From an uncultured Eubacteriales bacterium (GTDB lineage: Bacteria > Bacillota > Clostridia > Oscillospirales > CAG-382), in contig CAKSEL010000004.1 of the NCBI GenBank assembly GCA_934446675.1, positions 72,878-136,877 on the forward strand: a DNA stretch of 64,000 nucleotides. The letters run 5' to 3'. The notes under the pieces are model-generated. The model worked only from the letters and a program-made list of their open reading frames with translations. It was not told where the DNA came from and did no database searches. A program made the position numbers and the translations under genes. Shown piece after piece: positions 44,341 through 63,239 of this stretch. Numbering within the stretch: position 1 is the first letter of the stretch; the number at the start of each line of letters is the position of its first letter.

Positions 44341-45114
44341 ATGCACGGCGGAAAGGTTGAAATCTGCGGAGTCAACACATCGAGCTTAAAGGTTTTATCG
44401 GCATCGGAAAAGAAGGAGCTGCTTGCCAGAGTCAAAAACGGCGACATGGAAGCGCGCGACGAGCTTATACGCGGAAATTTAAAGCTTGTTCTGAGCGTAG
44501 TCAAACGCTTTTCGGGAAGAGGAGAAAACCCGGATGATTTATTTCAGGTCGGCTGCATAGGGCTTATAAAGGCTATCGACAACTTTGACGATTCACACAA
44601 CGTTCAGTTCAGCACATATGCCGTCCCGATGATCATAGGAGAGCTGCGCAGGTATCTGCGCGACAACAACGCGATAAGGGTCTCGCGCTCCATGAGAGAT
44701 CTTGCATACAAGGCTCTCGGCGTAAGAGAGGAGCTTTCGGCAAAGCTTTCGAGAGAACCGAAGATCGAGGAGATTGCAAAGCAGCTCGGCGCACAGAAAG
44801 CCGACGTTGCGGCGGCGCTTGACGCCATTGTGGATCCAATTTCCCTGTACGAGCCCGTTTTTTCCGAAAGCGGAGATTCGGTATATGTAATGGATCAGGT
44901 AAGCGATGACAAAAACACCGACGAAAGCTGGCTTGAAAGCATTGCTATCTCGCAGGCAATAGACAAGCTCTCTCCGAGAGAACGCAGGATAGTCACCATG
45001 CGCTTTTTCGATGGCAAAACCCAGATGGAGGTCGCAAACGAAATACACATAAGCCAGGCTCAGGTCTCACGCCTTGAAAAAGGCGCTCTTATTAAAATAA
45101 GGAAAGAAATTTAA
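44341..45114 (+). CDS. sigG: sporulation sigma factor SigG
   Basis: Near-colinear with B. subtilis SigG as I remember it: KVEICGVNTSSL, GNLKLVLSVVKRF, DDLFQVGCIGLIKAIDNFD, FSTYAVPMIIGELRRYLRDNN, GKTQMEVANEIHISQAQVSRLEK. Confidence 0.88.
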   Translation: MHGGKVEICGVNTSSLKVLSASEKKELLARVKNGDMEARDELIRGNLKLVLSVVKRFSGRGENPDDLFQVGCIGLIKAIDNFDDSHNVQFSTYAVPMIIGELRRYLRDNNAIRVSRSMRDLAYKALGVREELSAKLSREPKIEEIAKQLGAQKADVAAALDAIVDPISLYEPVFSESGDSVYVMDQVSDDKNTDESWLESIAISQAIDKLSPRERRIVTMRFFDGKTQMEVANEIHISQAQVSRLEKGALIKIRKEI

Positions 45115-45125
45115 ACGGTTTTTAC

Positions 45126-45173
45126 GCGGTGCGCCGGACAAAATTACGGACGCCGCATTTTTTATGTGGATTT
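45126..45173 (+). terminator. terminator after sigG
   Basis: Imperfect GC-rich hairpin GCGGTGCGCCGG...CGGACGCCGC followed by ATTTTTTAT. Confidence 0.5.
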
Positions 45174-45228
45174 TTTCCAAAAACCGTGTCCGAAAAGCCC
45201 AAATGTATAAATATTTTTGCGAAAACTG

Positions 45229-45257
45229 TTGACTTATCGGCGTCAAAAAGGTATAAT
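45229..45257 (+). promoter_or_regulatory. near-consensus promoter of secDF
   Basis: TTGACT (45229-34), 17-nt spacer, TATAAT (45252-57). Confidence 0.55.
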
Positions 45258-45303
45258 ATATGGCATAAGCGACTTTTTCTAACAAGAAAGGAAGAAAACT
45301 TTA

Positions 45304-46590
45304 ATGAAAAACAGCGTATGTTCCTTTGTGCTTATGCTGCTGCTTGTCGTTCTCGTAACGGCTGTGGCTGTTTTCGGCATAGGCGCATTCAATCTTCCCG
45401 GCGCGTTCGACGACGACGCCATAAGCAAAGGACTTGACCTTGTCGGCGGTTCTTCCATAACTTATGTTGCAGAACCCGATGAAAATGCCGAAAACTTCGA
45501 CATGGCAACGGCTCTCGACACGGTTGAATCAATGCTCAGACAGCGTCTTGACACTCTCGGCTACACCGAAGCTACCATCGCAAAGATGGGCACGGACAGA
45601 ATAAGAGTTGAAATTCCGGGTATCGACGATCCCGAAGACGCTCTTAAAAAGCTCGGCTCCACGGCAAAGCTTGAATTCCTCGATTCTTCGGGAAACGTTA
45701 TCCTTGAAGGCAAGGACGTCAAGGAAGCCGTAGCAAACTACGGTCAGACAAGCGAAAGTTCCATGGGTTCGCAGTATTACGTTTCGCTCACCTTCAATGA
45801 CAGCGGCAGACAGAAATTCGCCGACGCCACCGAAGAAATGGCAAAGCTTGCTTCTTCAAGCATGAATTACATTGACATCGAGCTTGACGGCGAGAATATT
45901 TCGAGAGCCTCCGTTTCGTACAGAATAGACAGCGACAGCTGCATGATTTCGGGCAACTTCTCAAAGGACGAGGCAGTTTACCTTGCAGAGCTTATCTCCT
46001 CCGGTCAGCTTCCCGTTGTTCTCCGTGAGATCGAACTGAGATACGTAGGACCTACGCTCGGTTCCGAAGCGCTTGCTTCGAGCATAAGAGCCGGTCTTAT
46101 CGGTACTCTTATCGTAATGCTGTTCATGATCCTTGTTTACAGACTTCCCGGTCTTGTATCGGCGATAGCTCTTGTAAGCTACATTTCGATCTTCGCTGTT
46201 CTTATAATCGTATTCAAGGTCAACCTCTCGCTGCCCGGTATCGCAGGTATCATACTTACTATCGGTATGGCGGTTGACTCAAACGTAGTCATATACGAAA
46301 GAATCAAGGAAGAACTCAACACCGGAAAGAGCACCAGAGCCGCAGTTAAATCCGGTTTCGGCAGAGCTTTCTCGGCAATTCTCGACTCCAACGTAACTAC
46401 GATAATCGCGTCCGTCGTACTTTGGTACTTCGGCACGGGTGCGGTAAGAGGATTTGCAATCACGCTCTTCATAGGCGTTGTGGTTTCTCTCTTCACGGCA
46501 CTTTGCGTAACGCGCGTTCTTCTCAACTCAGTCACCAACATGGGTGCCGGCAGATGGCTGCTCGGCGCCAGAAAATCGCAGCAGGCGTAA
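45304..46590 (+). CDS. secD: protein translocase subunit SecD
   Basis: LDLVGGSSITY, large periplasmic domain, six-TM SecD/F core (GIAGIILTIGMAVDSNVVIYERIKEE). Confidence 0.9.
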   Translation: MKNSVCSFVLMLLLVVLVTAVAVFGIGAFNLPGAFDDDAISKGLDLVGGSSITYVAEPDENAENFDMATALDTVESMLRQRLDTLGYTEATIAKMGTDRIRVEIPGIDDPEDALKKLGSTAKLEFLDSSGNVILEGKDVKEAVANYGQTSESSMGSQYYVSLTFNDSGRQKFADATEEMAKLASSSMNYIDIELDGENISRASVSYRIDSDSCMISGNFSKDEAVYLAELISSGQLPVVLREIELRYVGPTLGSEALASSIRAGLIGTLIVMLFMILVYRLPGLVSAIALVSYISIFAVLIIVFKVNLSLPGIAGIILTIGMAVDSNVVIYERIKEELNTGKSTRAAVKSGFGRAFSAILDSNVTTIIASVVLWYFGTGAVRGFAITLFIGVVVSLFTALCVTRVLLNSVTNMGAGRWLLGARKSQQA

Positions 46591-46605
46591 CGGAGGTGCG
46601 GAAGA

Positions 46606-47748
46606 ATGAAAAATTTCAGCTTTACTAAAAACAAAAATATATTCTTTATACTCACCGCAATAATGATTATCGCGGGAATATGCTCTTTCGTTATCCGCAG
46701 CTTCAATTTCGACATTGAATTCGTAGGCGGTACCGAAATCAGCTACGACCTCAAAAAGGCCGTTGAAAAGTCCGACGAGGAAGCTATCAAGAAAATGGTG
46801 ACCGACATTATCGGTGCGGACAACTTCTCCTCACTTCGTATTGTCGGCGACAACAAGAACACTGTTGTCATCAGAACCAAGCTTGTTTCGGCTGACGACG
46901 AGGGCAAGTGGGACGCTGCTGCTGCCGACGTTGAAGCTGCCGTAAAAGCGCTTTATCCCGATTCGACCACAGTTTCAAGCGCAGAGGGCAACTCGATATT
47001 CAGCCTTTACACCGAGGAAAGCGCAACTGCCGCTACCGAGGACGATACAAACGCTATTAATGAGGCACTTACCGACGTTGTGCCCGACGCTACCGTTACA
47101 ATAAGAGATGACGGCACGGTGAACGTTTCATTCGACGTTGCAGGCCAAATCTCCGAATACAGAGAAGCTATCTCAACTCAGATCAAAGAGCTTTATCCCG
47201 ACGCAGTCTGGGAATCCACCGACACTGTAAGCGCAGAGGTCAGCACAAGCCTCAAGAAGTCGGCTATCGTTTCTGCTGTTGCGGCTATCGCGCTCATGCT
47301 GCTCTACATTGCATTCAGATTTGACTTCGGTTCGGCGTTTGCAGCAGTTCTCTGCCTTGCTCACGACGTATTCGTAATGCTCGTTGCGTACTCCGTTTTC
47401 CAGATACCCGTTGGTTCTACCGTAATCGCAACGGTGCTTACAATTCTCGGTTACTCAATCAACGCAACTATTATTATATTTGACCGTGTGCGCGAGAACG
47501 TAAAGCAGATGCCTGTCGGCATTCCTTTCTCTGAAAAGGTTGACGACGGTATAAGATCCACCCTCATGCGTTCTTTGAACACCACAATTACAACGCTTGT
47601 TACGATAGGTCTTATATACATTCTCGGCGTTACCTCGATAAAGCAGTTTGCACTTCCCCTTATCGTAGGTATCATCGCAGGCGCATATTCTTCTATCTGC
47701 CTTGCAGGTAACTTCTGGACAATATTCAGAAGCAAGAAAAAGAGATAA
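46606..47748 (+). CDS. secF: protein translocase subunit SecF (with enlarged periplasmic domain)
   Basis: FDIEFVGGTEI, C-terminal core LTILGYSINATIIIFDRVREN. ACGGAGGTG SD. About 80 aa longer than the typical SecF I remember. Confidence 0.9.
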   Translation: MKNFSFTKNKNIFFILTAIMIIAGICSFVIRSFNFDIEFVGGTEISYDLKKAVEKSDEEAIKKMVTDIIGADNFSSLRIVGDNKNTVVIRTKLVSADDEGKWDAAAADVEAAVKALYPDSTTVSSAEGNSIFSLYTEESATAATEDDTNAINEALTDVVPDATVTIRDDGTVNVSFDVAGQISEYREAISTQIKELYPDAVWESTDTVSAEVSTSLKKSAIVSAVAAIALMLLYIAFRFDFGSAFAAVLCLAHDVFVMLVAYSVFQIPVGSTVIATVLTILGYSINATIIIFDRVRENVKQMPVGIPFSEKVDDGIRSTLMRSLNTTITTLVTIGLIYILGVTSIKQFALPLIVGIIAGAYSSICLAGNFWTIFRSKKKR

Positions 47749-47899
47749 AAACCGACAATCGGATTTTGCGGGCCGCAGCAATGCGGCTCTTTTTTTGCAC
47801 ATATATGCACCGCACGAAGAAAATTTATCTTTTGTCTCTTTACATAGACTCATTTACAATGTATAATGTATAGTAATCACACAAGAAAGGCGGTGCTTT

Positions 47900-49387
47900 A
47901 TGCAGACGGACACACAGACGCAAAATTCCGAAAATACGGCTTTGCAGCAGCCCAATTCCGGTTCAAAATTCCGTTCGGCAAAGAAAATACCGCCGCCCAA
48001 AGAAAAAAATTCGGGCATTACGCGCGTTTATACCGAAAAAACTCACGGCAGAGTAAATATAATAACAAATTCGCGCTACAACACACAAAGCTCCTCGCGT
48101 CTCATGTCGCCTCTCGACGCCGAGCAGAGAAATGCGGCGCTTTACGGCGCAACCTCCAACAGTGCGCTGCGCAAAAAACGAAAGCCGTCGCGCAGACTTT
48201 CACTCAAAAAAGCGCCTATCGTCCCGACAGCGCCAAAAGATCCGGTTACGATAAAGAAAAACTGGCTAATAAATCAGATAAAGCAGCACGTTGCCTCGCT
48301 TGACATTCCGCTTTTGATTACGGCGCTGTTTATGTGCTTTGCCGGACTCATCTCTGTCAACAGCGCAACGCTTACATACGGCACTCACAGATTTGTTATC
48401 GTACAGTTCTGCGCCTGCATTCTCGGATTTTGCGTAATGACGCTGCTTTCCGTCGCGGATTACAGGCAGCTTATACGGCAGTACAGAACAATAATCGCAC
48501 TAAACGCCCTTATGCTGATAGTGACCTACATTTTCGGCAGCAGCGTTACCGAAAGCTCCAACGCGAACTGGATAGACCTCGGTTTTATCAAAATTCAGCC
48601 GTCAGAGTTTTCAAAGCTTATGTTTATTTACAGCTTTTCGGTACATCTGAGCTTAGTAAAGGACAGGCTGAACAAAATTTCAACATTTATCACGCTGTTT
48701 ATACACGCGTGTCTTATCTTCGGGCTTGTGCTGCTTCAGAGAGACCTCGGATCGCTTACCATCTTCCTTATGATATTTGTGGCAATGTGTTTTGCGGCAG
48801 GGCTGAGCATATGGTACTACATTGCGGGCGCTGCGATTGCCGTAGGATTATCGCCGTTTATATGGCGGCACCTCGGAGTATATCAGCAGAACCGAATACT
48901 GCTCTGCTTTGACAGTTCGATAGATCCCGGCGGCACAGGCATACGCTATCAGCAGCTGCGCAGCCAGACCGCAATCGGAAACGGCGGACTTTTCGGCACG
49001 GGCTATACACACGGCACGGTAACGCAGGGACTTTCGGACGGGCTCCCGGCAAAGCACACCGACATGATCTTCGCAACGGTCTGCGAGGAATGGGGGCTTA
49101 TAGGCGCGCTTGTAATTCTCGGCGCTACCTGCTATCTCATCTACCGCATACTTAAAATAGCGCTTGAATGTGAAAATCCCGTCGGACGGTACATATGCGT
49201 GGGCGTTGCGGCGCTGCTTATAACTCAGGTCGCAGAAAACGTCGGAATGTGCCTTGGCATAATGCCAGTAATCGGCATTACATTCCCGTTTTTAAGCTAC
49301 GGCGGTTCTTCCGCACTCAGCACGTTCCTTGCAATAGGCATGGCGCTGTCGGTGCGCTCGCACAGAGAAAAAACCTTCTTTTCATAA
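47900..49387 (+). CDS. FtsW/RodA/SpoVE (SEDS) family peptidoglycan glycosyltransferase with ~125-aa basic disordered N-terminal extension
   Basis: SEDS core: IKIQPSEFSKL, LLQRDLGS, LPAKHTDMIFATVCEEWGLIG, PVIGITFPFLSYGGSS. The N-terminal 125 aa are Q/S/K/R/P-rich with no TM. Confidence 0.85.
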   Translation: MQTDTQTQNSENTALQQPNSGSKFRSAKKIPPPKEKNSGITRVYTEKTHGRVNIITNSRYNTQSSSRLMSPLDAEQRNAALYGATSNSALRKKRKPSRRLSLKKAPIVPTAPKDPVTIKKNWLINQIKQHVASLDIPLLITALFMCFAGLISVNSATLTYGTHRFVIVQFCACILGFCVMTLLSVADYRQLIRQYRTIIALNALMLIVTYIFGSSVTESSNANWIDLGFIKIQPSEFSKLMFIYSFSVHLSLVKDRLNKISTFITLFIHACLIFGLVLLQRDLGSLTIFLMIFVAMCFAAGLSIWYYIAGAAIAVGLSPFIWRHLGVYQQNRILLCFDSSIDPGGTGIRYQQLRSQTAIGNGGLFGTGYTHGTVTQGLSDGLPAKHTDMIFATVCEEWGLIGALVILGATCYLIYRILKIALECENPVGRYICVGVAALLITQVAENVGMCLGIMPVIGITFPFLSYGGSSALSTFLAIGMALSVRSHREKTFFS

Positions 49388-49407
49388 AATTCACGGAGGA
49401 AACCAAA

Positions 49408-50061
49408 TTGAACGACTACACCAACGAAAATGCTGATATTTTCGACGAACCTCAAAAGAAAAAAGGCTTTACGTTCGGAAAGCTTATTAAATGGATCTGC
49501 CTTGCGTTTATAATAGCGGTATGTGCGATACTTTTTGCACGGTGCTATATGTACAGCGACTCACCCATAGTCAAAAAGGTAATAACCGACAGCAAGTTTA
49601 CCGACGCATACAATGCCGATAAAGAAAATTTTGAAGTTCTGCAATACGGAATTAAGTCCTCGTGGGTTGCGATAAAGGAAAACCGCCTTATCGAGTTCAA
49701 CTATCTGTACTATGTTCCCAAAACCGAACAGCTCCAGTTTTCGGTAAAATACAACCTCGATCTTCCCGGAGAAGATGTCGGGCTTCCATTTAGGTTCAAG
49801 CTTACGGACTCCGACGGAAACGAGTACACATCATACACATACGAATTTGAAAAACGCTACGGCTACGGATATTACCGCCTTTGCTTTGACGGCATTAAGC
49901 TCGAAAAAGACGATACTGCCGAAACCGACAAAAATAAAAGCTACACCGTAGCCATTGACATGAAGGACGCAGACGGCAACTATTCAGAGCTTTGCACAAA
50001 CGAGATCTACAACGGTTCTACGGTATGCCGTCCGGTTGATTTTTCAAAATACTTAAAGTAA
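49408..50061 (+). CDS. membrane-anchored hypothetical protein
   Basis: GGAGGAA lies 7 nt before TTG 49408; the track ORF 49195.. overlaps the SEDS gene. One TM (LIKWICLAFIIAVCAILFA), then a beta-rich domain. No family recognised. Confidence 0.6.
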   Translation: MNDYTNENADIFDEPQKKKGFTFGKLIKWICLAFIIAVCAILFARCYMYSDSPIVKKVITDSKFTDAYNADKENFEVLQYGIKSSWVAIKENRLIEFNYLYYVPKTEQLQFSVKYNLDLPGEDVGLPFRFKLTDSDGNEYTSYTYEFEKRYGYGYYRLCFDGIKLEKDDTAETDKNKSYTVAIDMKDADGNYSELCTNEIYNGSTVCRPVDFSKYLK

Positions 50062-50081
50062 AAGTAAAAAAGGAGCGCATT

Positions 50082-51086
50082 ATGAAACGCATAACTCTTT
50101 CGGACATTGCAAAAATGACCGGATATTCAATAAACACCGTTTCCCATGCTCTCAACGACAAAAACGACATTTCGGAAAAAACCAAAGCCGAAATAAAAAA
50201 AGCCGCGGTAAGTCTCGGATATATAGGCAATTCCTCCGCAAGCTTTTTGAGAAGCGGAAAAAGCCGCGCCGTCGCGGTAATAATTCCCGACATTGCAAAT
50301 CCGCACTTCTCGATAATGATTAAGGAAATGCAGCTTGCTTTGAGAAATGCAGGCTACACAGCCGTTGTTTTCAACACCGACGAGGACGAAAAAAACGAAA
50401 CAGACGCTATTATGACCTCTCTCCGGCAGAACGTTGACGGAATTATAATCTGTCCCGTGCAGAAAACCGTGGATAACATCGAATATCTCGAAAAATGCGG
50501 CGTTCCCTTTGTGCTTATAGGCAGATGTTTTGACAAAAACAAGCACAGCTACGTTGTATGCGACAACAAAAACGGCGGATTTCTGGCAGGCAAAGAGGCT
50601 ATCCGCGTAAGCTGCGGAAAACCCGTGCTGTTTCTCAACGCAAGCTCATTTATTACGACCTCGCGCGAACGTCTTGACGGCATAAAGCAAGCTTTTGAGG
50701 TTTCGGGCATACCTCTTTCAAATCTCAGAGTACACGAGGTTTCCCCAATGCTGTCCGACGGCGGAGATATTGCAAAGATACTTTCGGACGCAAAAAATTA
50801 CGGCGCCGTCATATGCTTTTCGGACCTGCTTGCAATGAAAGTCTGTATGCTGCTGCGCGGTATGTCTCTTGAAATACCCAAAGACATAAGCGTTATAGGC
50901 TTTGACGACATTGTTTCAAAATTCGCGCTGCCCATAATGCTAAGTTCGGTTTCTTCGTCGAAAACTCTTATGTCATCAAAGGCGGTCGAGTTCCTTTTTG
51001 AGCTTATCGGCGGCAAAAAAGCCGAAAATTTGCGTGCAGTTCTCCCGACCGAGCTTGTAAGACGCGAAACCACAAAAAATATCTGA
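50082..51086 (+). CDS. LacI-family transcriptional regulator
   Basis: N-terminal HTH MKRITLSDIAKMTGYSINTVSHALND, followed by a PBP-type sugar-binding domain (AVAVIIPDIANPHFS). Confidence 0.9.
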   Translation: MKRITLSDIAKMTGYSINTVSHALNDKNDISEKTKAEIKKAAVSLGYIGNSSASFLRSGKSRAVAVIIPDIANPHFSIMIKEMQLALRNAGYTAVVFNTDEDEKNETDAIMTSLRQNVDGIIICPVQKTVDNIEYLEKCGVPFVLIGRCFDKNKHSYVVCDNKNGGFLAGKEAIRVSCGKPVLFLNASSFITTSRERLDGIKQAFEVSGIPLSNLRVHEVSPMLSDGGDIAKILSDAKNYGAVICFSDLLAMKVCMLLRGMSLEIPKDISVIGFDDIVSKFALPIMLSSVSSSKTLMSSKAVEFLFELIGGKKAENLRAVLPTELVRRETTKNI

Positions 51087-51097
51087 ACAAATTTCAC

Positions 51098-51124
51098 GGC
51101 GGCTATTGACATTCCGCCTTTTTT
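51098..51124 (+). terminator. terminator after the LacI gene (overlaps the next promoter)
   Basis: GGCGG-ctattgacatt-CCGCC followed by TTTTTT. Confidence 0.5.
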
Positions 51125-51134
51125 GTGGCACAAT
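51106..51134 (+). promoter_or_regulatory. promoter candidate of the GRE operon
   Basis: TTGACA (51106-11), 17-nt spacer, CACAAT (51129-34) preceded by TGG. Confidence 0.5.
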
Positions 51135-51136
51135 AT

Positions 51137-51150
51137 CATTAACGTTAATG
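51137..51150. promoter_or_regulatory. perfect 14-bp palindrome with central CG: LacI/GalR-type operator
   Basis: CATTAACGTTAATG lies immediately downstream of the -10 and 22 nt upstream of the GRE start codon. Confidence 0.6.
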
Positions 51151-51172
51151 TAAATATTTCCGGAGGCAGGTT

Positions 51173-53143
51173 ATGACAGACAGATTATACAACTTCGTAC
51201 TTCACAAAGAGCATCACAAATACAGAACCGACGCCAAAATAAGCATTGATTATTCCGCAAGCCCGATTGAGCGCATGACAAGCAGATTTGAGCAGATGTG
51301 CGCACTCCAGACGCCGGTCATACTTCCCGACGAGCAGATCGTTCTTATAAGAACGACAAAAGATCTTCCGGACATAATGACGGAACAGGAGTGGGTGGAA
51401 ATAGAGAAAACGCATTTCAGGCACGAACTCGGATATATGTCGAACCTTTCGCCCGACTACGGCAGAATTATCTCGACAGGGCTTTCCGAGTGCGCAAAGA
51501 CCGCCGACGAATACGGAAAAAGAGAAATTGCGGCAATTATCTCGCTTTGCAAAAGATACCGTGATTTTGCGCGCAAAAACGGACGGGACGATGTTGCGGA
51601 CATACTCGGAAACGTACCCGAAAAACCGGCAAAAAGCTTTCGCGAGGCGCTTCAGTTTTTCAGAATAATACACTTTGCGCTCTGGCTCGAAGGAAACTAT
51701 CATGTTACCGTCGGACGCTTTGACAAATATATGTACCCCTATTTCAAAGCCGACCTTGACAGCGGCGTTCTCACCAAAACCGAAGCGTTTGAGCTGTTAT
51801 GCGACTTTTTCCTCTCTTTCAACAAGGACAGCGACATGTATCCCGGCGTTCAGCAGGGCGACAACGGTCAGAGCATGGTTCTCGGAGGCACGGACGAAAA
51901 CGGAAACGAGGTTTTCAGCGAGCTCAGCGCCATGTGTCTTGAGGCAAGCGGCAGACTGCTCATGATAGATCCGAAAATAAATCTGAGAGTAAACTCAAAA
52001 ACGCCGGACGAGGTATACATAAGAGCAAGCACGCTTACAAAAGCAGGACTCGGATTTCCGCAGTATTCCAACGACGACGTGGTTATCCCGGCTCTCGAAA
52101 AAATGGGATACGACAAAAAGGACGCGGCAAACTATGTTGTTGCGGCTTGCTGGGAGTTTATAATACCCGGAATCGGCGCGGATATTGCAAACATCGCCGC
52201 CCTCTCTTTCCCGAAAGTAATAGACGTCTGTCTGCACAGGGATCTTGAAAAATGCAAAGACTTTGACGAATTTTTAAGCTGCGTTAAAAAGCAGATACAC
52301 GACGAATGCGAAAATATCTGCGGCAGCATAAAAAAGCCCTGGTTCGTACCCTCTCCGTTTATGAACGTCTGCATGGACGTAAACATATACGAGGGCGGAA
52401 AATACAACAATTACGGTATTCACGGCACCGGCATTTCAACGGCTGCGGACTCGCTGTCGGCAATCAAAAAATATGTCTTTGACGAAAAGAGCATAAGCGC
52501 AAAAGAGCTTATCAGCGCAGTTGACGGCGACTTCAAAAATACGCCCGAACTTCTTGCAAAATTAAGATACGAAACTCCCAAAATGGGCAGCGACGACGAC
52601 ACTGCGGACGGTTTCGGAACAATGCTTCTCGACGAATTTTCGGCAAGTCTTTCCGGAAAGAAAAATTCACGCGGAGGAATATACCGCGCAGGCACCGGAA
52701 GCGCTATGTTCTATCTCTGGCACGCGGACGAAATAGGCGCGTCGCCCGACGGCAGACGCAAAGGCGAACCCTTTGCGGCAAACTTCTCTCCGAGCCTGTT
52801 TGCAAAGACGTCCGGACCTTTCGGAATTATCAAATCCTTTTCAAAGCAGCACTTTATAAACGCCGCAAACGGCGGTCCGCTCACGCTTGAATTTCACAGC
52901 AGTATGTTTGACGGCGACGACGGCATAAAGAAAGTCGCAATGCTGGTAAAGGCTTACATGGCTCTCGGCGGCGAACAGTTACAGCTGAACGCGGTAAATC
53001 TCGAAACGCTCAAAGACGCCAAGATCCACCCCGAAAACCACCGTCAGCTCGTGGTCAGAATATGGGGCTGGAGCGCATATTTCGTCGAGCTTGACGAGAG
53101 ATACCAGAACCACGTTATGAAACGCTGCGAATACAAGCTATGA
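51173..53143 (+). CDS. glycyl radical enzyme, PFL2/dehydratase-like family, unusually compact (656 aa)
   Basis: C-terminal glycyl loop VVRIWGWSAYFVEL (Gly about residue 632), ASPDGRRKGEPFAANFSPS, Cys loop VVAACWEFIIPG (Cys about 326, C-x-E pattern), QQGDNGQSMVLGG. GGAGG SD. Confidence 0.85.
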   Translation: MTDRLYNFVLHKEHHKYRTDAKISIDYSASPIERMTSRFEQMCALQTPVILPDEQIVLIRTTKDLPDIMTEQEWVEIEKTHFRHELGYMSNLSPDYGRIISTGLSECAKTADEYGKREIAAIISLCKRYRDFARKNGRDDVADILGNVPEKPAKSFREALQFFRIIHFALWLEGNYHVTVGRFDKYMYPYFKADLDSGVLTKTEAFELLCDFFLSFNKDSDMYPGVQQGDNGQSMVLGGTDENGNEVFSELSAMCLEASGRLLMIDPKINLRVNSKTPDEVYIRASTLTKAGLGFPQYSNDDVVIPALEKMGYDKKDAANYVVAACWEFIIPGIGADIANIAALSFPKVIDVCLHRDLEKCKDFDEFLSCVKKQIHDECENICGSIKKPWFVPSPFMNVCMDVNIYEGGKYNNYGIHGTGISTAADSLSAIKKYVFDEKSISAKELISAVDGDFKNTPELLAKLRYETPKMGSDDDTADGFGTMLLDEFSASLSGKKNSRGGIYRAGTGSAMFYLWHADEIGASPDGRRKGEPFAANFSPSLFAKTSGPFGIIKSFSKQHFINAANGGPLTLEFHSSMFDGDDGIKKVAMLVKAYMALGGEQLQLNAVNLETLKDAKIHPENHRQLVVRIWGWSAYFVELDERYQNHVMKRCEYKL

Positions 53144-53928
53144 CAGGCACGGTTTTTGACATAAAAGAGGGTGCGGTACACGACGGTCCGGGACTTCGCA
53201 CCACGGTATTCTTAAAAGGGTGTCCTTTAAGGTGCGTCTGGTGCCACAATCCCGAAGGTCTGTCAAAAGAACCGCAGCTTATGGTAAAGCAAAACCTGTG
53301 CGTCGGCTGCGGAACCTGCCGCAAAGGCTGCAGCCACCCGGAATGTGCGCCGTTTTCGCGCTGCGTTCACGCCTGTCCCAACGGCTGTCTTTCGGTAAGC
53401 GGAAAAGAGTACACGTCCGAAGAACTGTGTTCGGAACTTTCAAAAAACCGCCTGTTCTTTCAGATGTCGGACGGCGGAGTAACGTTTTCCGGCGGAGAAC
53501 CGTTATTTCAGGGCGGATTTTTACTCGAATGTCTCGATATTCTGCAAAAGGACGGTATAAACACCGCGATAGAAACAAGCGGTTACTGCGATGCGGACTT
53601 ATTCGGAAAGGTTTGCGACAAATGCGGCTTTATAATTATGGACATAAAGCTTTTTGACAGAGATACGCACAAGAAATACACCGGCGTTTACAACGACGCG
53701 GTTCTCGACAATGCGAAGTTTCTTATGAACTGCGGCAAGCCGTTTCTGTTCCGCACTCCGCTTATTCCGCACATAACCGACACAAAAGAAAATCTCTGCA
53801 AAATACGGGACTTTATAAAAGACTCTCCTTGGGAGAAACTAAAATACAACGACATGGCAGATCTTAAATACAAAATGCTCGGAATGGAATATCCTTACGG
53901 CAGCATGGAGGTAAAAAATGAAAATTAA
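53140..53928 (+). CDS. glycyl-radical enzyme activating protein (radical SAM)
   Basis: CPLRCVWCHNPE radical-SAM cluster motif, extra ferredoxin-like Cys clusters (CVGCGTCRKGC; CVHACPNGC), GGVTFSGGEPL. ATGA overlap with the GRE stop. Confidence 0.9.
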   Translation: MTGTVFDIKEGAVHDGPGLRTTVFLKGCPLRCVWCHNPEGLSKEPQLMVKQNLCVGCGTCRKGCSHPECAPFSRCVHACPNGCLSVSGKEYTSEELCSELSKNRLFFQMSDGGVTFSGGEPLFQGGFLLECLDILQKDGINTAIETSGYCDADLFGKVCDKCGFIIMDIKLFDRDTHKKYTGVYNDAVLDNAKFLMNCGKPFLFRTPLIPHITDTKENLCKIRDFIKDSPWEKLKYNDMADLKYKMLGMEYPYGSMEVKNEN

Positions 53929-55828
53929 CGCGCAAATGTACAATGCAGACGGCGCACTGCCCTGCGCTTTTGAAGAAAAATCAATTTCAAACGGAGTAAC
54001 AGCCGTAACGGTAAGTGCCAAAAGCGCCGCGGCTCTTGACGCTTTATGTGCGGTGAAGCTAAGTCTTATACCCGACAACGCTTTTTCCGAATACACCTCG
54101 GTATACCGCCATTCCGAGTATTGGTGCAGACCGCAGTTCGGAAACGACCTTTCTTCAATTCCCGACGAAACGCAGACGCTTATACTCAAAAACTCCGACG
54201 GCAGCTATACCGTAATTCTACCGGTTGTTTCTGAGCTTTACAGGTGCGTTATAGAGTCCGGAAAGACAAAAAACGAGTTCTGTGCGCGTCTGTTTACATA
54301 TGCCGACGGTTTAACCGAGTGCAATGCCCTTTCTTTGGTATACAAGACGGGAGATAATCCGTTTTCCGTCATGCACGACTGCGTAAACGCCGCGATAAAG
54401 CAGCTCGGAAACAAAATACTTCCGGCAGAACAAAGAAAATATCCCGAAATATTTGAATATCTCGGCTGGTGCAGCTGGGACGCGCTGCACATTGAAGTAA
54501 ACGAAAAAGGCTTACTCGAAAAGTGCAGAGAATTCAAAGAAAAGAACCTTCCCGTCCGCTGGGCGATACTCGACGATATGTGGGCAGACGTTCCGAACTT
54601 CAAAAACCATACATACTCGGATTTCGGCGAGATGATAAAGCTCATGCACTCAAGCTCTCTGCGCTCCATGGAGGCTGATCCCGAAAGATTTCCCGACGGT
54701 CTTAAACATACCGTTACCGAGATGAAAAAATACCTCACGTGGATAGGTATGTGGCACCCGACGACCGGGTACTGGTTCGGAATTGAACCCGGCAGCAAAC
54801 TTTTTGAAAAGTACAAAGAGCATCTTTACAAAACCGCGGACGGCAGATACATATTAAAACCGGATTACGAAAGCTATCACGCGTTTCTCGATGAGTGGCA
54901 CGCTTTCTTCAGGGACTGCGGCGCAGACTTTGTAAAGGTTGACAATCAGAGCATTATAAGGCGGTTTTACAAGCACACGCGCCCGATAGGCGAAATTGCA
55001 CACGATATGCACGCGGCAATAGAACAGTCAACTCAAAAGCATTTTGGCGGTGCGCTCATCAACTGCATGGGCTGTGCAAACGACAACATCTGGAACAGAC
55101 CGTCAAGCGCCGTTTCACGCTGTTCCGACGACTTTCAGCCAAACAACCGCGAATGGTTCACAAAGCACATTCTTCAGTGCTCCTTTGCGTCGTTCATGCA
55201 GAGAGACATTATCACCTGCGACTGGGATATGTGGTGGACAAACGATCCTCAGGGTATCAAAAACAGCGTCATACGTGCGGTTTCGGGCGGTCCGATATAC
55301 ATAAGCGACGAGATAGGAAAGAGCGAGCGAAACGTAATTATGCCGCTCATACTCTCCGACGGAAAAATACTCCGCTGCGACAAACCAGCCGTTCCGACTG
55401 CCGACTGTCTGACAGGCAATCCCGAAACAAACGGCAGAATTTTCAAGCTTCAGAACACGGCAAAAGGCAGCGGTGTGCTTGCGGTATTCAACATTGACGC
55501 ATCAGACTGCGCGGCGCACGGCAGCATAAGCCCAGACGACATTGACGGACTCTGCGGAGAAGAATTTGCGGTATACGAGCACTTCACAAAGCAGGCGTTC
55601 ACCGTGAAAAAAGGTCAGAGAATACCTCTTACTCTCGAAACACGCGACAATTTCAGGCTGTACAACTTTGTACCTATCAAGGACGGCTTTGCCGCACTCG
55701 GAGATGTCAGCAAGTTCATATGTCCTCTCACCGTAAAGAGCGCGGACAAAAATTCCGGTGCCGAAACGCTCGAACACACCGACTGCCTTATCTTTAAGGA
55801 CGGTAAATTCGAGGCGGTAAAGGCATAA
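53918..55828 (+). CDS. GH36-clan raffinose-synthase/Sip1-like glycosidase or transglycosidase
   Basis: YLGWCSWDALHIEV, WAILDDMW, GADFVKVDNQ (nucleophile-Asp motif) and RCSDDFQPN (acid/base motif), as in plant raffinose synthase/Sip1 and GH36. 11-nt overlap with the activase gene. No signal peptide. Confidence 0.75.
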   Translation: MKINAQMYNADGALPCAFEEKSISNGVTAVTVSAKSAAALDALCAVKLSLIPDNAFSEYTSVYRHSEYWCRPQFGNDLSSIPDETQTLILKNSDGSYTVILPVVSELYRCVIESGKTKNEFCARLFTYADGLTECNALSLVYKTGDNPFSVMHDCVNAAIKQLGNKILPAEQRKYPEIFEYLGWCSWDALHIEVNEKGLLEKCREFKEKNLPVRWAILDDMWADVPNFKNHTYSDFGEMIKLMHSSSLRSMEADPERFPDGLKHTVTEMKKYLTWIGMWHPTTGYWFGIEPGSKLFEKYKEHLYKTADGRYILKPDYESYHAFLDEWHAFFRDCGADFVKVDNQSIIRRFYKHTRPIGEIAHDMHAAIEQSTQKHFGGALINCMGCANDNIWNRPSSAVSRCSDDFQPNNREWFTKHILQCSFASFMQRDIITCDWDMWWTNDPQGIKNSVIRAVSGGPIYISDEIGKSERNVIMPLILSDGKILRCDKPAVPTADCLTGNPETNGRIFKLQNTAKGSGVLAVFNIDASDCAAHGSISPDDIDGLCGEEFAVYEHFTKQAFTVKKGQRIPLTLETRDNFRLYNFVPIKDGFAALGDVSKFICPLTVKSADKNSGAETLEHTDCLIFKDGKFEAVKA

Positions 55829-55839
55829 AAGTATATAAT

Positions 55840-55872
55840 GCACGTCTTTTTACATAAAGGACGTGCTTTTTT
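55840..55872. terminator. bidirectional terminator (GRE operon / MATE gene)
   Basis: GCACGTC (55840-46) pairs with GACGTGC (55860-66), then TTTTTTAT. Confidence 0.7.
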
Positions 55873-57289
55873 ATTTTACGGCACTCTCCTTTTCGGCTTT
55901 TGACAGGCTTTTGCACACGCCGAATATCACGGCAGCGGAAATAATAAACGTAAGCGTATCGGCAACAGGCATAAAATAAAGAATTCCGTAAAGTCCGAAA
56001 CAAACCGGCAGCACAAGCACAAGTCCGACGCCGAACACTATTTCACGAAGCAGCGACAGCAGCGCCGATTCCCATGCCTTTCCTATCGACTGCAAAAATA
56101 TAAACGTACCCTTATTCACCATAGCAAACGCCGTCATGCACATAAACAGCCTTATGCATTTCAGCGCAAATTCATTATAGTAAACGCTCTCGTGCGCCGC
56201 ACCGAATATATTGATAAAAAACTGCGGAAAGCACAAAAACACCAACGCGGCAGCAAATCCAACAGCTGCCTGAATCGCGGTAAGATACAAAAGCAGCTTT
56301 TTTACGCGCGAATATCTGCACGCGCCCATATTATACCCTGCAACCGGTATGCAGCCTGCCGAAAGCCCGACGGATACGGATATTACTATCTGAAAGAACT
56401 TCATTACTATGCCTATTACCGCAGTCGGAATATGCGCATACATTTCTTTTCCGAAGATCTCATCTCTTGCTCCGTATTTGCGGCACATATTGAGTACAGC
56501 CGCCATTGTAAACACTATCGACACCTGTGAAAGAAAGCTTGTAAAGCCGAGAGAAAGTATTTTCTTTACGCAGTAAAAATCAGGCTTAAAGCACTCACGG
56601 CTAAGCTTTACCGATTTAAAGAAAAACACGTAATACAGCGAAAATGCCGCCGATATTATCTGTCCGATTACGGTTGCAACCGCGGCTCCCGTCATTCCCA
56701 TATGAAAAGTATAGATAAACAGCGGATCAAGCACACAGTTTGCCGCAGCTCCGCAAAGCAGCGACACCATTGCAAAACGCGGACTTCCGTCGGAACGTAT
56801 TATCGGGTTCAGTGCCTGACCGAACATATAGAACGGTATGCCGAGGCTTATCCAAAAGAAATATTCCTTTGACAAAGCATATGTTTCGGCGTTTACCTGC
56901 GCCCCGAACGCGCAAAGAATTCCGTCTGCGAACACAAGATATACAGCCGTCACTACAATGCCCGAAAGCACCGTCATAACAAGCGCGTTTCCTATACTTT
57001 TGGCAGCACTTTCGTCCTGTCTTGCGCCGAGAGTCATGCTGAAAAATGCACTTGTTCCGTCGCCTGTCATTGTGGCGACAGCCAGGGCTATTACCGTCAT
57101 TGGAAAGACGACCGAATTTGCCGCGTTTCCGTATGATCCGAGATATTCGGCGTTTGCTATATATATCTGATCCACGATATTATACAGCGCGCCCACAAGC
57201 AGCGATATTATACACGGCAGGGAATATTTACATATAAGCTTTCCGAGCTTTTGGGTTTCAAGATACCTGTTTTGTGCGGTATTTGTCAT
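55871..57289 (-). CDS. MATE-family efflux transporter
   Basis: 12-TM protein. N-terminus KLGKLICKYSLPCIISLLVGALYNIVDQIYI is typical of MATE/NorM. AAGGAGG upstream of ATG 57289. Confidence 0.9.
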   Translation of the reverse strand: MTNTAQNRYLETQKLGKLICKYSLPCIISLLVGALYNIVDQIYIANAEYLGSYGNAANSVVFPMTVIALAVATMTGDGTSAFFSMTLGARQDESAAKSIGNALVMTVLSGIVVTAVYLVFADGILCAFGAQVNAETYALSKEYFFWISLGIPFYMFGQALNPIIRSDGSPRFAMVSLLCGAAANCVLDPLFIYTFHMGMTGAAVATVIGQIISAAFSLYYVFFFKSVKLSRECFKPDFYCVKKILSLGFTSFLSQVSIVFTMAAVLNMCRKYGARDEIFGKEMYAHIPTAVIGIVMKFFQIVISVSVGLSAGCIPVAGYNMGACRYSRVKKLLLYLTAIQAAVGFAAALVFLCFPQFFINIFGAAHESVYYNEFALKCIRLFMCMTAFAMVNKGTFIFLQSIGKAWESALLSLLREIVFGVGLVLVLPVCFGLYGILYFMPVADTLTFIISAAVIFGVCKSLSKAEKESAVK

Positions 57290-57412
57290 TTTATTTTTCC
57301 TCCTTACCCGTGCAGACAAAAAAATCCCGGTACAAAACAAAAGCTCTTGTCACTTTGTCTCGTATCGGGAAAAAATCCTTGTATCGTTTCGGGCAAATAT
57401 TTATTTTTATGT

Positions 57413-57441
57413 ATTTTATCAGAGATTTTACGTTTTGTCAA
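57413..57441 (-). promoter_or_regulatory. promoter candidate of the MATE gene
   Basis: Minus strand TTGACA (57441-36), 17-nt spacer, TAAAAT (57418-13). Confidence 0.5.
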
Positions 57442-57460
57442 GGGCAAAAATCACCGAAAA

Positions 57461-58070
57461 TCACCCGTTTCTGAAGTCAAGATATTTCAAAAATTCCTTT
57501 GCTGCGGCGCTCAGAGCTTTTTTGCTTTTAAAAGCAACCCCGATTTTTCTGTATGCCGGAACGCTGAGCGGCTTTACGCATATATCATACGGTATTCTCC
57601 TTAAAATAAGTTCGGGCAGCACGCTTATGCCGAGTCCGCACTCGACCATCGACATTATCGCATAGTCGTCCCATGTGGTAAACTTTATATCGGGTTTCAG
57701 AGAATATTTTTCAAACAGCGCTGAAATATCGGTGTTGTTATCCTTATCGAGCAGCATAAACGGCTCGCTGCACAGTTCTTCTATCGGAAATACCTCGCTT
57801 TTTGCAAGCCTGTGATTTTTGGGTATTACGGCGCAGAGCCTGTCGTCCTCAAGAAATATGCTCTCAAAATCCCCTTCCGACGGCAGCCGCAGAAATCCGA
57901 AGTCTGCCCTGCCCTTCTCTATCCATGTTTCTGTTTCGGAATAGTCGCCCAAAAGCAGTTCGTATTCTATTTCGGGATAATCCTTTCTGAACGCCCGTAT
58001 TATATTCGGCAGCCAGTGCGCCGCAACGCTTGAAAAAGTGCCTATGCGTATAATTCCGCGGTTTATAAGT
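57461..58070 (-). pseudogene. LysR-family regulator remnant: substrate-binding domain only, HTH missing
   Basis: GIIRIGTFSSVAAHWLPNIIRAFRKDYPEIEYELLLGDY... to the C-terminus is a full LysR_substrate domain. The 97 residues upstream in the ORF are not an HTH and are antisense to the EamA fragment. Confidence 0.6.
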
Positions 58071-58074
58071 ATTC

Positions 58075-58319
58075 CGCAAGGCAGCGTTTTTCCTCTCATA
58101 TTTCTCGGATTTATAAATACGGGTCTCGGCTGTTTATTATACTTTTCCTCAATATCCGCGCTGCCCGTAAAGACAGTTGCGGTGTGCGGATACCTCGAAC
58201 CGCTGTCGGCGGTGCTTATGTCATGCATATTCTTGCACGAAACACTGACGCCGTTCCAGACTGTCGGCGCTTTTCTGATAGTCGGCGGCGCGGTATTTGC
58301 GGAGCTGAAAAAGAAATAG
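58075..58319 (+). pseudogene. EamA/DMT transporter remnant: last ~3 TM helices only
   Basis: VFPLIFLGFINTGLGCLLYFSSISALPVKTVAVCGYLEPLSAVLMSCIFLHETLTPFQTVGAFLIVGGAVFAE matches the C-terminal EamA repeat. No N-terminal ~200 aa, promoter or SD. Confidence 0.55.
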
Positions 58320-58415
58320 GGTACATCAATAAAATTACCGTCCGGCAAGTTTTTTCATGCAGGACGGTTTTTGCCGTATTTATATGCGGAATATGTGAAA
58401 CAATAATACAAAGCG

Positions 58416-59165
58416 TCACATAAACCTTACGTTCTCATATTCGTCGTCAAGATAGCTCTTTATATCGACGTCACTTATCACAATGTCAAGCTCCGAAACT
58501 CCGCAGAGCTTATATGCCGAATAGTGGTTGAGCTTGCTGTTATCGCACAGAAACACTTTTTTTTCGGCGTTCTTTATCATAAGCTTTCTCGGCATTATCT
58601 CGCTTGAAAAGCAGTCGTAAAGCGCGCCGTCCTTTGTGAGCGACTGTACCGAGAAAAAGCAGAAATCGGTATGGAACGAATTTATAAATTCCTCGGTCTG
58701 GGAACCGACGCAGCACGAAGGATTTTCGGTGCTCAGCTTTCCTCCTGTAAAATACGCGTTGATGGAATATTCCGAACACGCCGTCATGCTTGCAAGGCTG
58801 TTGGTTATAACGGTTATGTTCTTGATATTTTTTAAGTGCTCAACGCAGAAATACGTACTTGTTGAGCTGTCGAGAAACACAACGTCTCCGGGTCTTACAA
58901 GCGACGCCGCCTTGCTTGCGACAATAGCCTTTTCCTTGGTATTTTTATGGCTTCTGAGAAAGAACGGTATCTGCTTATTTACGGAATTCTTTATCTCGGC
59001 TCCTCCGTAGCTTCTCGACACAAGCCCTTTCATTTCAAGCCGTTTCAGATCCCTGCGTATACTCGACGGGCTTATATGTATCTTTTCCGCAAGATATTCC
59101 ACCGTCGCATACGCATTCTGCGAAAGTATATTCATTATCTCCTTTTCACGCTCGTTGCTGTACAT
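58416..59165 (-). CDS. DeoR/GlpR-family transcriptional regulator
   Basis: N-terminal wHTH EREKEIMNILSQNAYATVEYLAEKIHISPSSIRRDLKRLEMKGLVSRSYGGA and a C-terminal DeoR sugar-phosphate sensor domain. Divergent from the glpA-like operon. Confidence 0.9.
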   Translation of the reverse strand: MYSNEREKEIMNILSQNAYATVEYLAEKIHISPSSIRRDLKRLEMKGLVSRSYGGAEIKNSVNKQIPFFLRSHKNTKEKAIVASKAASLVRPGDVVFLDSSTSTYFCVEHLKNIKNITVITNSLASMTACSEYSINAYFTGGKLSTENPSCCVGSQTEEFINSFHTDFCFFSVQSLTKDGALYDCFSSEIMPRKLMIKNAEKKVFLCDNSKLNHYSAYKLCGVSELDIVISDVDIKSYLDDEYENVRFM

Positions 59166-59180
59166 ATAAAAACCTCCTCT

Positions 59181-59259
59181 TGCTCATTTCTGCTCATTTT
59201 ACATATATAAATATAAAATCTGTCTTATTTTTCGCCGTTGTTGATTTTTGTTGCTCATT
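59181..59259. promoter_or_regulatory. TGCTCATT repeats in the DeoR / glpA-like divergent region (candidate operators)
   Basis: Tandem TGCTCATTTC TGCTCATTTT at 59181-59200. A third TGCTCATT at 59252-59259 lies between a TTGATT (-35) and TATAAT (59265-70). Confidence 0.35.
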
Positions 59260-59325
59260 AATTATATAATAATAACAGAGATTTGTAAATAGCAAATTTG
59301 CATTTTTGTAAAAAAAGAGGAGAGA

Positions 59326-62336: not shown

Positions 62337-62375
62337 AAACCTGTTATTAAAATAAAAAAACAACGGAGATATACC

Positions 62376-63164: not shown

Positions 63165-63239
63165 GAGAGAGTGAGAAAACTGCAAAAGCGGCATCGGAAA
63201 TCAAAGAAAACCATGCCGCGGCAGTATAATCACATTAAA

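Follow-up and report, generated by a model that had tools for sequence, protein, structure and literature searches.

The window examined here is a 64,000-nucleotide stretch of DNA from an uncultured Eubacteriales bacterium (GTDB lineage Bacteria; Bacillota; Clostridia; Oscillospirales; CAG-382), corresponding to positions 72,878 to 136,877 of the forward strand of contig CAKSEL010000004.1 in assembly GCA_934446675.1. At 50082-55828 it carries a gene for a LacI-family repressor followed by genes for a compact glycyl-radical enzyme (GRE), a radical S-adenosylmethionine (SAM) activase and a protein resembling glycosidases of glycoside hydrolase family 36 (GH36), hereafter GH36L. We propose, with a probability of roughly 0.55, that these genes constitute a repressor-controlled unit in which the product of the GH36 glycosidase undergoes radical C-O cleavage by the GRE. 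Judged by its sequence, the GRE is genuine and of the active type, with a cognate activase, and the pairing of GRE and GH36L, which is repeated in many further bacteria of gut and rumen, probably marks an undescribed step in the anaerobic breakdown of plant sugars. The sequences show directly the gene content, the motifs, the coupling, the conservation of the operator, the linkage of the two enzymes in both directions and the distance of the GRE from characterised enzymes, whereas we infer the co-transcription, the repression, the specificity of the glycosidase and the reaction and substrate of the GRE.

Layout and predicted control of the operon

Four plus-strand open reading frames (ORFs) fill 50082-55828: the LacI-family repressor gene (50082-51086, 334 aa), the compact GRE gene (51173-53143, 656 aa), the activase gene (53140-53928, 262 aa) and the GH36L gene (53918-55828, 636 aa). 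A first-pass annotation, made from the sequence alone, had described the last three as translationally coupled, and a reading of the sequence bears this out: the GRE stop codon and the activase start codon share an ATGA at 53140-53143, and the activase and GH36L coding regions overlap by 11 nt at 53918-53928. A GGAGG ribosome-binding site lies 7 nt 5' of the GH36L start codon. This layout fits co-transcription of GRE, activase and GH36L. The operon is flanked by an FtsW/SpoVE-type gene and a MATE gene, and an intrinsic terminator occupies the space between the convergent GH36L and MATE genes (plus strand, 55840-55876; hairpin 55840-55866, an 11-bp stem followed by a T run). The terminator had been called strong and bidirectional. 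On the plus strand it is indeed strong (-15.6 kcal/mol, z=-7.5, followed by UUUUUUAUUUU), but on the minus strand the fold is weaker (-11.6 kcal/mol, z=-4.5) and the U tail poorer. As had also been noted at the outset, no aldehyde dehydrogenase, microcompartment shell or sugar-transporter genes are found in or beside the operon.

The repressor matches the Pfam LacI helix-turn-helix (HTH) model (E=4.5e-11) together with Peripla_BP_1, Peripla_BP_3 and Peripla_BP_4, and falls below every NCBIfam equivalog cut-off, the best being an RbsR-type model at 190 bits against 382. The features of LacI/GalR membership, namely the HTH, the periplasmic-binding-protein-like effector domain and a CG-centred palindrome at the promoter, are all present. 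The predicted promoter is of the sigma-70 type (plus strand, 51106-51134) and consists of TTGACA, a 17-nt spacer and CACAAT with an extended -10 TG; at 10 of 12 matching positions it is tied with two other sites as the best plus-strand score in 49000-57500. Two nucleotides past its -10 box lies the predicted LacI-type operator (51137-51150), a perfect CG-centred 14-bp palindrome, CATTAACGTTAATG, so that the gene, promoter and palindrome of the first-pass annotation were all recovered. The palindrome is the sole match in the 64-kb window with up to 3 mismatches allowed, and a search for further operator sites in the window, undertaken to define a regulon, returned none. Past the LacI stop codon, at 51100-51126, GGCGG-N11-CCGCC followed by TTTTTT forms a weak terminator-like hairpin over the -35 box of the GRE promoter, and an identical sequence occurs in a locus from the same species (L001).

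Conservation of these elements was assessed in a sample of 80 GRE loci, each covering 10 kb to either side. Of the 80 loci, 11 have a LacI homologue (41-97% identity) directly 5' of the GRE, a count that ORF clustering raises to 13; the GREs of these 11 loci are 62-96% identical to that of the window. In all 11, a TTGACA-17-TATAAT-like layout precedes the GRE and CATTAACGWTAATG follows directly past the -10 box, with CATTATCGATAATG in its place in one locus. We take the operator as real because it is conserved in 11/11 LacI loci; the lone site in the window is not above chance. Six of the 11 operator-bearing loci (L016, L029, L035, L041, L051 and L057) are without GH36L, and since the operator is kept in them, the repressor appears to be dedicated to the GRE module. 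LacI control, as initially proposed, is predicted for the loci that have such a gene but does not describe the family as a whole, in which a divergent AraC-type regulator is found more often (27/80 loci, against 11-13/80 with LacI upstream).

The compact glycyl-radical enzyme family

The GRE matches the Pfam PFL-like (PF02901, E=2.6e-86) and Gly_radical (PF01228, E=4.6e-18) families, and its translation contains each of the hallmarks that had been claimed for it: the Gly loop RIWG632WSAYF (Gly632 at 53066-53068), the SPDGRRKGEP motif and the Cys loop AAC326WE328F (Cys326 to Glu328 at 52148-52156). C326 and the stretch R629-I-W-G632-W-S-A are invariant in 100 family sequences and align with the loops of PflD and YbiW. 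When the profile searches suggested for the operon were run, PF02901, PF01228, Radical_SAM and PF05691 were each matched on the expected protein. An AF2 model of the GRE (pLDDT 73, pTM 0.79) was matched by Foldseek with probability 1.00 to solved GRE eliminases (TM 0.74-0.81, 21-26% identity). We call the enzyme active-type because the Gly loop, the Cys loop, an activase and the GRE fold are all present.

The activase scores 257.7 bits against TIGR02494 ('glycyl-radical enzyme activating protein', cut-off 174.35), has the Pfam domains Radical_SAM and Fer4_12, and carries the cysteines C28x3C32x2C35 as well as an eight-Cys ferredoxin-like insert; its earlier identification as a radical-SAM activase is thus well founded. 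An activase homologue lies 3' of the GRE in at least 73 of the 80 loci; second in constancy to it is a regulator of the sugar type, AraC or LacI.

Despite these hallmarks the GRE stands far from characterised enzymes. The NCBIfam PFL2-3 subfamily model gives 327 against a cut-off of 678, and the eliminase and decarboxylase equivalogs (HypD, HpfG, HpsG, CutC, indoleacetate and 4-hydroxyphenylacetate decarboxylases and PflD-like) give 165-278 against cut-offs of about 1000-1150. Within this range, NF007437, which NCBI names formate C-acetyltransferase and which spans 765 positions like E. coli PflD, gives 273 against 1109. The best solved relative is the B12-independent glycerol dehydratase 1r8w (E=3.3e-82; 23% identity in the Foldseek alignment), followed by PflD and 1,2-propanediol dehydratase, with alignments that begin only near residue 107; residues 1-106 align to no solved GRE. 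The enzyme lacks about 130 residues relative to canonical GREs because of several deletions in the N-terminal helical region, which is the conserved GRE dimer interface according to a 2026 review (PMC13450708). That review lists as eliminases GD, PD, HpfG, HypD, HpyG, HpzG, CutC, IslA/IseG and HpsG, as isomerases HplG, YbiW and PflD, and as other groups the decarboxylases, X-succinate synthases, formate lyases and aminoacyl-radical enzymes, and it stresses that whole GRE clades are without assignment (PMC13450708). The compact family matches none of the characterised groups in it (PMC13450708). The expectation that the GRE would fall outside all characterised isofunctional groups is in this way borne out by the NCBIfam scores, the 23% identity to the best solved relative and the absence from the review. 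Open-access full text yielded nothing relevant on GREs together with raffinose synthase, GH36, glycoside hydrolase or alpha-galactosidase, subscription-only papers being outside that search.

The active site gives some indication of the chemistry. The C-X-E motif is assigned to all GRE 1,2-eliminases and isomerases (PMC13450708), and in the compact GRE C326-W327-E328 is invariant, which places it in the eliminase/isomerase class. His164 of glycerol dehydratase is the proposed proton donor to the leaving hydroxyl (PMC13450708). This residue, the His of a GHxxxDY motif that PflD and YbiW keep, aligns with Asn91 of the compact GRE (51443-51445; the numbering was verified), and Asp447 of glycerol dehydratase aligns with Asn340. 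With His changed to Asn, the details of the reaction may not be those of a diol dehydration.

Three known identities were considered for the GRE and rejected. A glycerol dehydratase is ruled out by the replacements His164 to Asn91 and Asp447 to Asn340, together with the low identity and PFL2-3 score given above. A pyruvate formate-lyase is contradicted by the Cys loop, which reads A-A-C-W-E without a Cys-Cys pair, and by a score of 75 bits against 994 for TIGR01255 (PflB); PflB structures are matched weakly (E about 1e-16) and over the C-terminal part only. The database names 'pyruvate formate-lyase' and 'formate C-acetyltransferase' are therefore unsupported. Finally, an anhydro-alditol-phosphate isomerase like YbiW or PflD was dismissed on the basis of 28% identity, the NF007437 score and the lack of a phosphotransferase system (PTS) or Fsa-type aldolase in the window and in most loci.

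The family to which the enzyme belongs is large. At least 582 GTDB species genomes encode a compact-GRE relative, a lower bound obtained from a degenerate-pattern scan of one genome per GTDB species. The 80 sampled loci derive mostly from metagenome-assembled genomes of Acutalibacteraceae, Oscillospiraceae and other 'Clostridia' recovered from the guts of humans, goats, deer, buffalo and chickens, and include the cultured Ructibacterium gallinarum DSM 107454 (L035), in which the order is LacI-GRE-activase. In a library clustered at 50% identity, about 30 clusters have the compact architecture (640-710 aa, aligning from before residue 40), whereas canonical GREs (720-820 aa) align only from about residue 105-140 and at 31-35% identity. 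Across the 100 family sequences, with identity down to 47%, 183 of 656 positions are at least 97% invariant, including N91, H177, T179, Q227, D230, N231, Q233, C326-W-E328, D337, N340, Y411, H417, M512, Y514, N537, S539, N566-G-G-P, T571, E573 and G632. Given this degree of invariance, compact GREs probably form a separate family with one function. The candidate active-site residues all fall within the invariant set, which is rich in Gln, Asn, Asp, Thr, Ser and His, and such polar residues suggest a neutral polyhydroxylated ligand.

In some distant members of the compact clade (P0287, P0324, P0337, P0341 and P0354; 33-46% identity, 640-700 aa) the catalytic Cys is gone, and the Cys loop reads SSRGEP, SDFGTP, SSLDTP or ASGGEF. 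Several are also without the Gly loop, and P0324 has a Ser at the position of Gly632 (RLWSSG). These proteins would be either degenerate pseudo-enzymes or variants of the aminoacyl-radical type.

Linkage to GH36L and other neighbours

GH36L matches the Pfam Raffinose_syn family (PF05691, E=3.4e-70; 237 bits against a cut-off of 20), and its only solved sequence relatives are 7exf and 7exg of the Arabidopsis RS6 / alkaline alpha-galactosidase (E=2.6e-57, residues 57-528). Both catalytic Asp motifs recognised in the first-pass annotation are present, as KVD342 (nucleophile D342, 54941-54943) and SD404D405F (acid/base D404-D405, 55127-55132), and D342 aligns with the Asp mutated to Ala in 7exg. 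In 11 GRE-linked GH36L homologues the catalytic and sugar-site motifs are invariant, with D405 present in 11/11 and D404 as the consensus. No signal peptide was seen on reading the translation. From its sequence, GH36L is a predicted cytoplasmic GH36 enzyme of the raffinose-synthase / alkaline alpha-galactosidase type, which may act as a hydrolase or as a transferase. Some homologues are named alpha-galactosidase by NCBI by similarity only. The plant alkaline alpha-galactosidases and raffinose or stachyose synthases (Arabidopsis RS6 / AtAkαGal3, 7exf) share with GH36L the KVD, SDDF, DDxW, DWDMW and GGPxYxSD motifs; in contrast to them, GH36L is bacterial, cytoplasmic and about 110 residues shorter. 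No bacterial PF05691 member was found among the sequence-matched solved structures or in open-access papers citing PF05691.

Linkage between the two enzymes was examined in both directions. In the forward test, a GH36L homologue (36-95% identity) lies within 10 kb in 17-18 of the 80 GRE loci (about 21%). In the reverse test, made on 80 metagenome loci retrieved with a GH36L alignment (40-99% identity), a compact GRE is present in 28, and in 14 of the 30 loci (47%) with at least 3.5 kb on both sides. The order GRE-activase-GH36L is the commonest (20/28), and GH36L-GRE-activase, divergent and interrupted layouts also occur. Gaps between the genes of linked loci are short, and most such loci have co-oriented genes that overlap or follow one another closely. 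Linked pairs turn up throughout the GRE tree, even in a deep clade with 47-58% identity, and linkage is still seen at 40-46% GH36L identity and in at least four gene orders. Besides the activase, GH36L is the commonest non-regulatory neighbour of the GRE module. For comparison, chance adjacency of one of at most 3 copies within about 18 genes of the GRE, in a genome of some 2,500 genes, would be around 2%, a rough estimate of our own rather than a computed value. These genomic patterns support a functional link between GRE and GH36L. The earlier prediction that the GH36-like neighbour is conserved with the GRE stands insofar as the linkage is reciprocal and non-random, but it does not extend to most GRE loci. 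Similarly, the three enzyme genes had been treated as one unit: the conserved core turns out to be regulator-GRE-activase, which by its distribution is an autonomous cassette, with GH36L as its most frequent accessory.

The remaining neighbourhood of the GRE is variable and consists mostly of carbohydrate-active genes, as determined by Pfam scans of related loci. Melibiase-type GH36 genes are found in about 7 loci and GH51 genes in 4; other glycosidase neighbours belong to GH43, GH3, GH78, GH88, GH127, GH2 and GH94, and a GH78 rhamnosidase gene lies directly 3' of GH36L in 5 linked loci. GDSL and SASA esterases number about 10 among the scanned neighbours, and in three loci a GDSL esterase gene is located between GRE and activase (L039 12119-12886, L045 and L080 12002-12739). 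DUF4867 is encoded in 8 loci and twice sits between GRE and activase (L022 6808-7458 and L030 11999-12649). Their position suggests that DUF4867 and GDSL esterases embedded in the GRE-activase unit act on the substrate or product of the GRE. DUF4867 (SftX) is described as a metal-binding cupin of ketose-metabolism clusters and a proposed ring isomerase whose function is unproven (PMC11968277). In L022 and L039 the unit adjoins genes for fucose-isomerase-like proteins, FGGY kinases, DUF4432 or aldose-epimerase proteins and class II aldolases, and short-chain dehydrogenase/reductase (SDR), aldo-keto reductase and zinc-dependent alcohol dehydrogenase (Zn-ADH) genes are present in a few loci. Components of ABC sugar transporters also occur. 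Among 142 same-strand neighbours and selected loci, Pfam scans found no recurrent aldehyde dehydrogenase, microcompartment, PTS, kinase or transporter partner, and the idea of a constant downstream pathway was rejected in favour of the variable carbohydrate-active set. Sulfoquinovose, a substrate raised by the identity of DUF4867 with SftX, was likewise dropped, DUF4867 being without assigned function and occurring mostly in ordinary aldose/ketose clusters; the Arg/Arg/Gln sulfonate triad of C-S lyases (described in PMC13450708) is not evident in the compact GRE.

Four of the loci (L063 4953-7478, L065, L077 and L079) contain a second GRE within 10 kb of the compact one. The one in L063 has canonical length (841 aa), and a separate activase accompanies those in L063 and L077.

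Proposed reaction, alternatives and related systems

In the scheme that we favour, the LacI-family protein would sit on the palindrome abutting the -10 box and block transcription until a carbohydrate effector releases it, whereupon three translationally coupled proteins, the compact GRE, its activase and a cytoplasmic GH36 glycosidase, would be made. The activase would install a radical on Gly632, while the glycosidase would cleave an imported alpha-galactoside or close analogue. The thiyl radical of Cys326 could then abstract hydrogen from the neutral polyhydroxylated hydrolysis product, with Glu328 serving as the base that deprotonates the adjacent hydroxyl, and the neighbouring C-O bond would be cleaved without oxygen by dehydration or ring-opening isomerisation. 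As a tentative suggestion, the GRE may turn the monosaccharide set free by the glycosidase, D-galactose or a near relative, into a deoxy-keto sugar. We favour a monosaccharide on four grounds: the regulators are of sugar type, DUF4867 is embedded in some of the units, sets of isomerase, kinase and aldolase genes occur now and then, and the invariant residues are polar; the DUF4867, isomerase, kinase and aldolase neighbours hint at a monosaccharide rather than at the alpha-galactoside of a polyol that the first-pass annotation gave as its example.

Several observations weigh against this scheme. No GH36L is found within 10 kb of the GRE in about 79% of the loci, and about half of the well-flanked GH36L loci (for example L163) are without a GRE. 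The window operon contains no transporter and no downstream enzyme. There and in several other loci the module lies among unrelated housekeeping genes, so GH36L need not be the source of the GRE substrate. The glycosidases nearby differ widely in specificity and single out no particular sugar. With Asn in place of the His proposed to protonate the leaving hydroxyl in glycerol dehydratase, a simple diol-type dehydration is not assured, and the AF2 model, made with a shallow alignment, shows pLDDT below 50 in its Cys and Gly loops, which leaves the active-site geometry unreadable.

Other explanations account for part of this evidence. Among solved enzymes the nearest are dehydratases of glycerol and 1,2-propanediol, H177 (His281 of glycerol dehydratase) is conserved along with the C-X-E motif, GDSL-type esterase genes recur and three of them stand between GRE and activase, and GH36L resembles plant enzymes that handle galactinol and raffinose. 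All of this would suit a GRE that dehydrates the aglycone polyol to an aldehyde or ketone, a reading close to the example of the first-pass annotation. The polyol could be glycerol, if galactosylglycerols derived from leaf galactolipids are the source, or a cyclitol such as myo-inositol, if the source is a galactoside of the galactinol type. We nevertheless consider this unlikely: Asn91 and Asn340, which stand in place of His164 and Asp447, are both family-invariant, 1,3-propanediol dehydrogenase, aldehyde dehydrogenase and inositol-pathway genes were not seen in the scanned neighbourhoods, and the rhamnosidases and arabinofuranosidases among the neighbours do not release such polyols. It is improbable that the GRE is instead a short-chain diol dehydratase of the 1,2-propanediol type, working as an electron sink in deoxy-sugar fermentation with only an indirect relation to the nearby glycosidase. 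Such a role would explain the 1,2-propanediol dehydratases among the top structural matches, the GH78 gene 3' of GH36L in 5 linked loci, the fucose-isomerase-like, FGGY kinase and class II aldolase genes flanking the GRE in L022 and L039 and the SDR, aldo-keto reductase and Zn-ADH genes of a few loci. However, the scanned neighbourhoods show no microcompartment shell, no PduP/PduL-type enzyme and no CoA-acylating aldehyde dehydrogenase, the catalytic His is replaced, the strongly polar invariant residues suit a polyhydroxylated ligand better than propanediol, and the commonest partner is of the alpha-galactosidase type rather than a fucosidase or rhamnosidase.

By analogy with YbiW and PflD, which in pyranose-like rings cleave the C1-O5 bond beside the C2 hydroxyl (PMC13450708), the GRE might also attack the glycoside itself, abstracting hydrogen at C2 with elimination of the anomeric substituent, while GH36L would act before or after it on a related compound. 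PflD is among the best sequence and structure matches, and DUF4867, the proposed ketose ring isomerase, is embedded in the GRE-activase unit in some loci. Nothing points directly to a glycoside substrate, though; YbiW and PflD keep the His that is replaced in compact GREs, and most family members are without an adjacent glycosidase-type partner, making this very improbable. That GH36L and GRE stand side by side only because both reside in regions rich in carbohydrate genes, with no functional link, would agree with the highly variable GRE neighbourhoods and the many GH36L genes with no GRE nearby. It is hard to reconcile with the reciprocal linkage (21% and 47%), the overlapping or tight same-orientation spacing, the persistence of linkage at low identity and across gene orders, and the estimate of chance adjacency, and we regard it as extremely unlikely.

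Among known systems, the glycerol dehydratase DhaB1/DhaB2 of Clostridium butyricum (1r8w) and the propanediol dehydratases (5i2a, 9rco) belong to the same superfamily and fold and include the best sequence and structure matches. Like the compact GRE, they have a Cys loop with C-X-E, a Gly-radical domain, His281 (H177 in the compact GRE) and a neighbouring radical-SAM activase that carries a ferredoxin-like insert. Compared with DhaB1, the compact GRE is about 130 residues shorter, has 106 unaligned N-terminal residues, Asn91 and Asn340, is associated with sugar-type regulators and lacks 1,3-propanediol dehydrogenase and microcompartment genes. YbiW and PflD of E. coli ('anhydroglycolysis'; 8id7, 8yjo and 8id0) are also C-X-E GREs with carbohydrate-derived substrates and sugar-type regulation, and PflD is one of the top three sequence matches. 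These enzymes measure 765-810 aa, keep the GHxxxDY His, act on PTS-delivered phosphorylated 1,5-anhydro-alditols and are linked to aldolases. The window operon, in contrast, is without PTS, kinase or aldolase genes and has a glycoside hydrolase partner, and identity is 28%. In E. coli K-12 (NC_000913.3, 4140000-4152000) pflD-pflC is flanked by frw PTS genes and the AraC-type yijO. The pair encodes the anhydromannitol-6-phosphate GRE and its activase, the sugar-acting YbiW and PflD having been known since 2024 (PMC13450708). The first-pass annotation had left these two out of its list of characterised GREs, although its statement that none of them is operon-linked to a glycosidase holds. Sugar-linked GREs are thus already known, and what is new is a compact, probably isofunctional family with an altered catalytic residue and a new kind of partner.

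Raffinose and melibiose operons of Firmicutes and Enterobacteria combine a LacI- or AraC-type regulator with a GH36 alpha-galactosidase, and carry a transporter and sucrose-handling enzymes but are not known to encode a radical enzyme. They have in common with the window operon a sugar-type repressor, a CG-centred palindrome over the promoter and an intracellular enzyme of the alpha-galactosidase type; in the window, by contrast, the conserved partner of the regulator is the GRE and not the glycosidase.

GREs carry out reactions that anaerobes cannot otherwise perform, and newly assigned GRE families have exposed gut pathways from choline to trimethylamine, from isethionate and 2,3-dihydroxypropane-1-sulfonate (DHPS) to sulfide, and for hydroxyproline and anhydroglucitol. 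The family described here is large, highly conserved, trimmed and mis-named 'pyruvate formate-lyase', and it has an altered catalytic residue. Its reciprocal linkage to the likewise uncharacterised bacterial branch of PF05691 offers a possible lead to a new step in the anaerobic breakdown of dietary plant glycosides. It is a possible, if doubtful, extension that an unphosphorylated plant monosaccharide or glycoside is itself the target of the GRE's radical chemistry, for which dehydration of galactose or L-arabinose to a deoxy-keto sugar, anomeric C-O cleavage and radical epimerisation are possibilities. If so, many gut and rumen Clostridia would possess a Leloir-independent, anoxia-dependent route for alpha-galactosides, and the enzyme would be the first known case of a glycoside hydrolase supplying a GRE directly. 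The three-gene operon, its predicted operator and repressor and the cultured relative R. gallinarum DSM 107454 provide a tractable handle.

The remainder of the window is housekeeping in character, with sporulation genes, RNase Y, polyphosphate kinase, Obg, MetK, PPDK, SecDF and FtsW, and an Rfam scan of 44000-64000 returned no RNA elements. Directly upstream of the repressor gene, an ORF at 49195-50061 (plus strand) encodes a protein that matches no Pfam family and has a single predicted membrane anchor. It overlaps the end of the FtsW-like ORF (47900-49387), its true start is probably past 49387, and it is kept directly 5' of the LacI gene in L001, L002 and L007. This gene is likely part of the upstream cell-division/sporulation unit and outside the GRE operon. 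Downstream, an ORF at 57461-58348 (minus strand) has only a LysR substrate-binding domain (residues 97-290) without an HTH, a TTG start and odd N-terminal 96 residues, and is probably a damaged or mis-started LysR-family gene. At 58416-62004, 2.6 kb from the operon, a DeoR-family regulator gene (minus strand) is divergent from genes for a FAD-dependent GlpA-like dehydrogenase with a BFD [2Fe-2S] domain and a pyridine-nucleotide-disulfide oxidoreductase, together a cluster of the glycerol-3-phosphate-dehydrogenase type. It was considered as a clue to glycerol and set aside, since, among the loci examined, the whole cluster adjoins the operon only in the same-species L001. Unrelated to the operon is a 1152-aa protein encoded at 18086-21544 (minus strand), which combines a DUF5107 domain with many TPR repeats.

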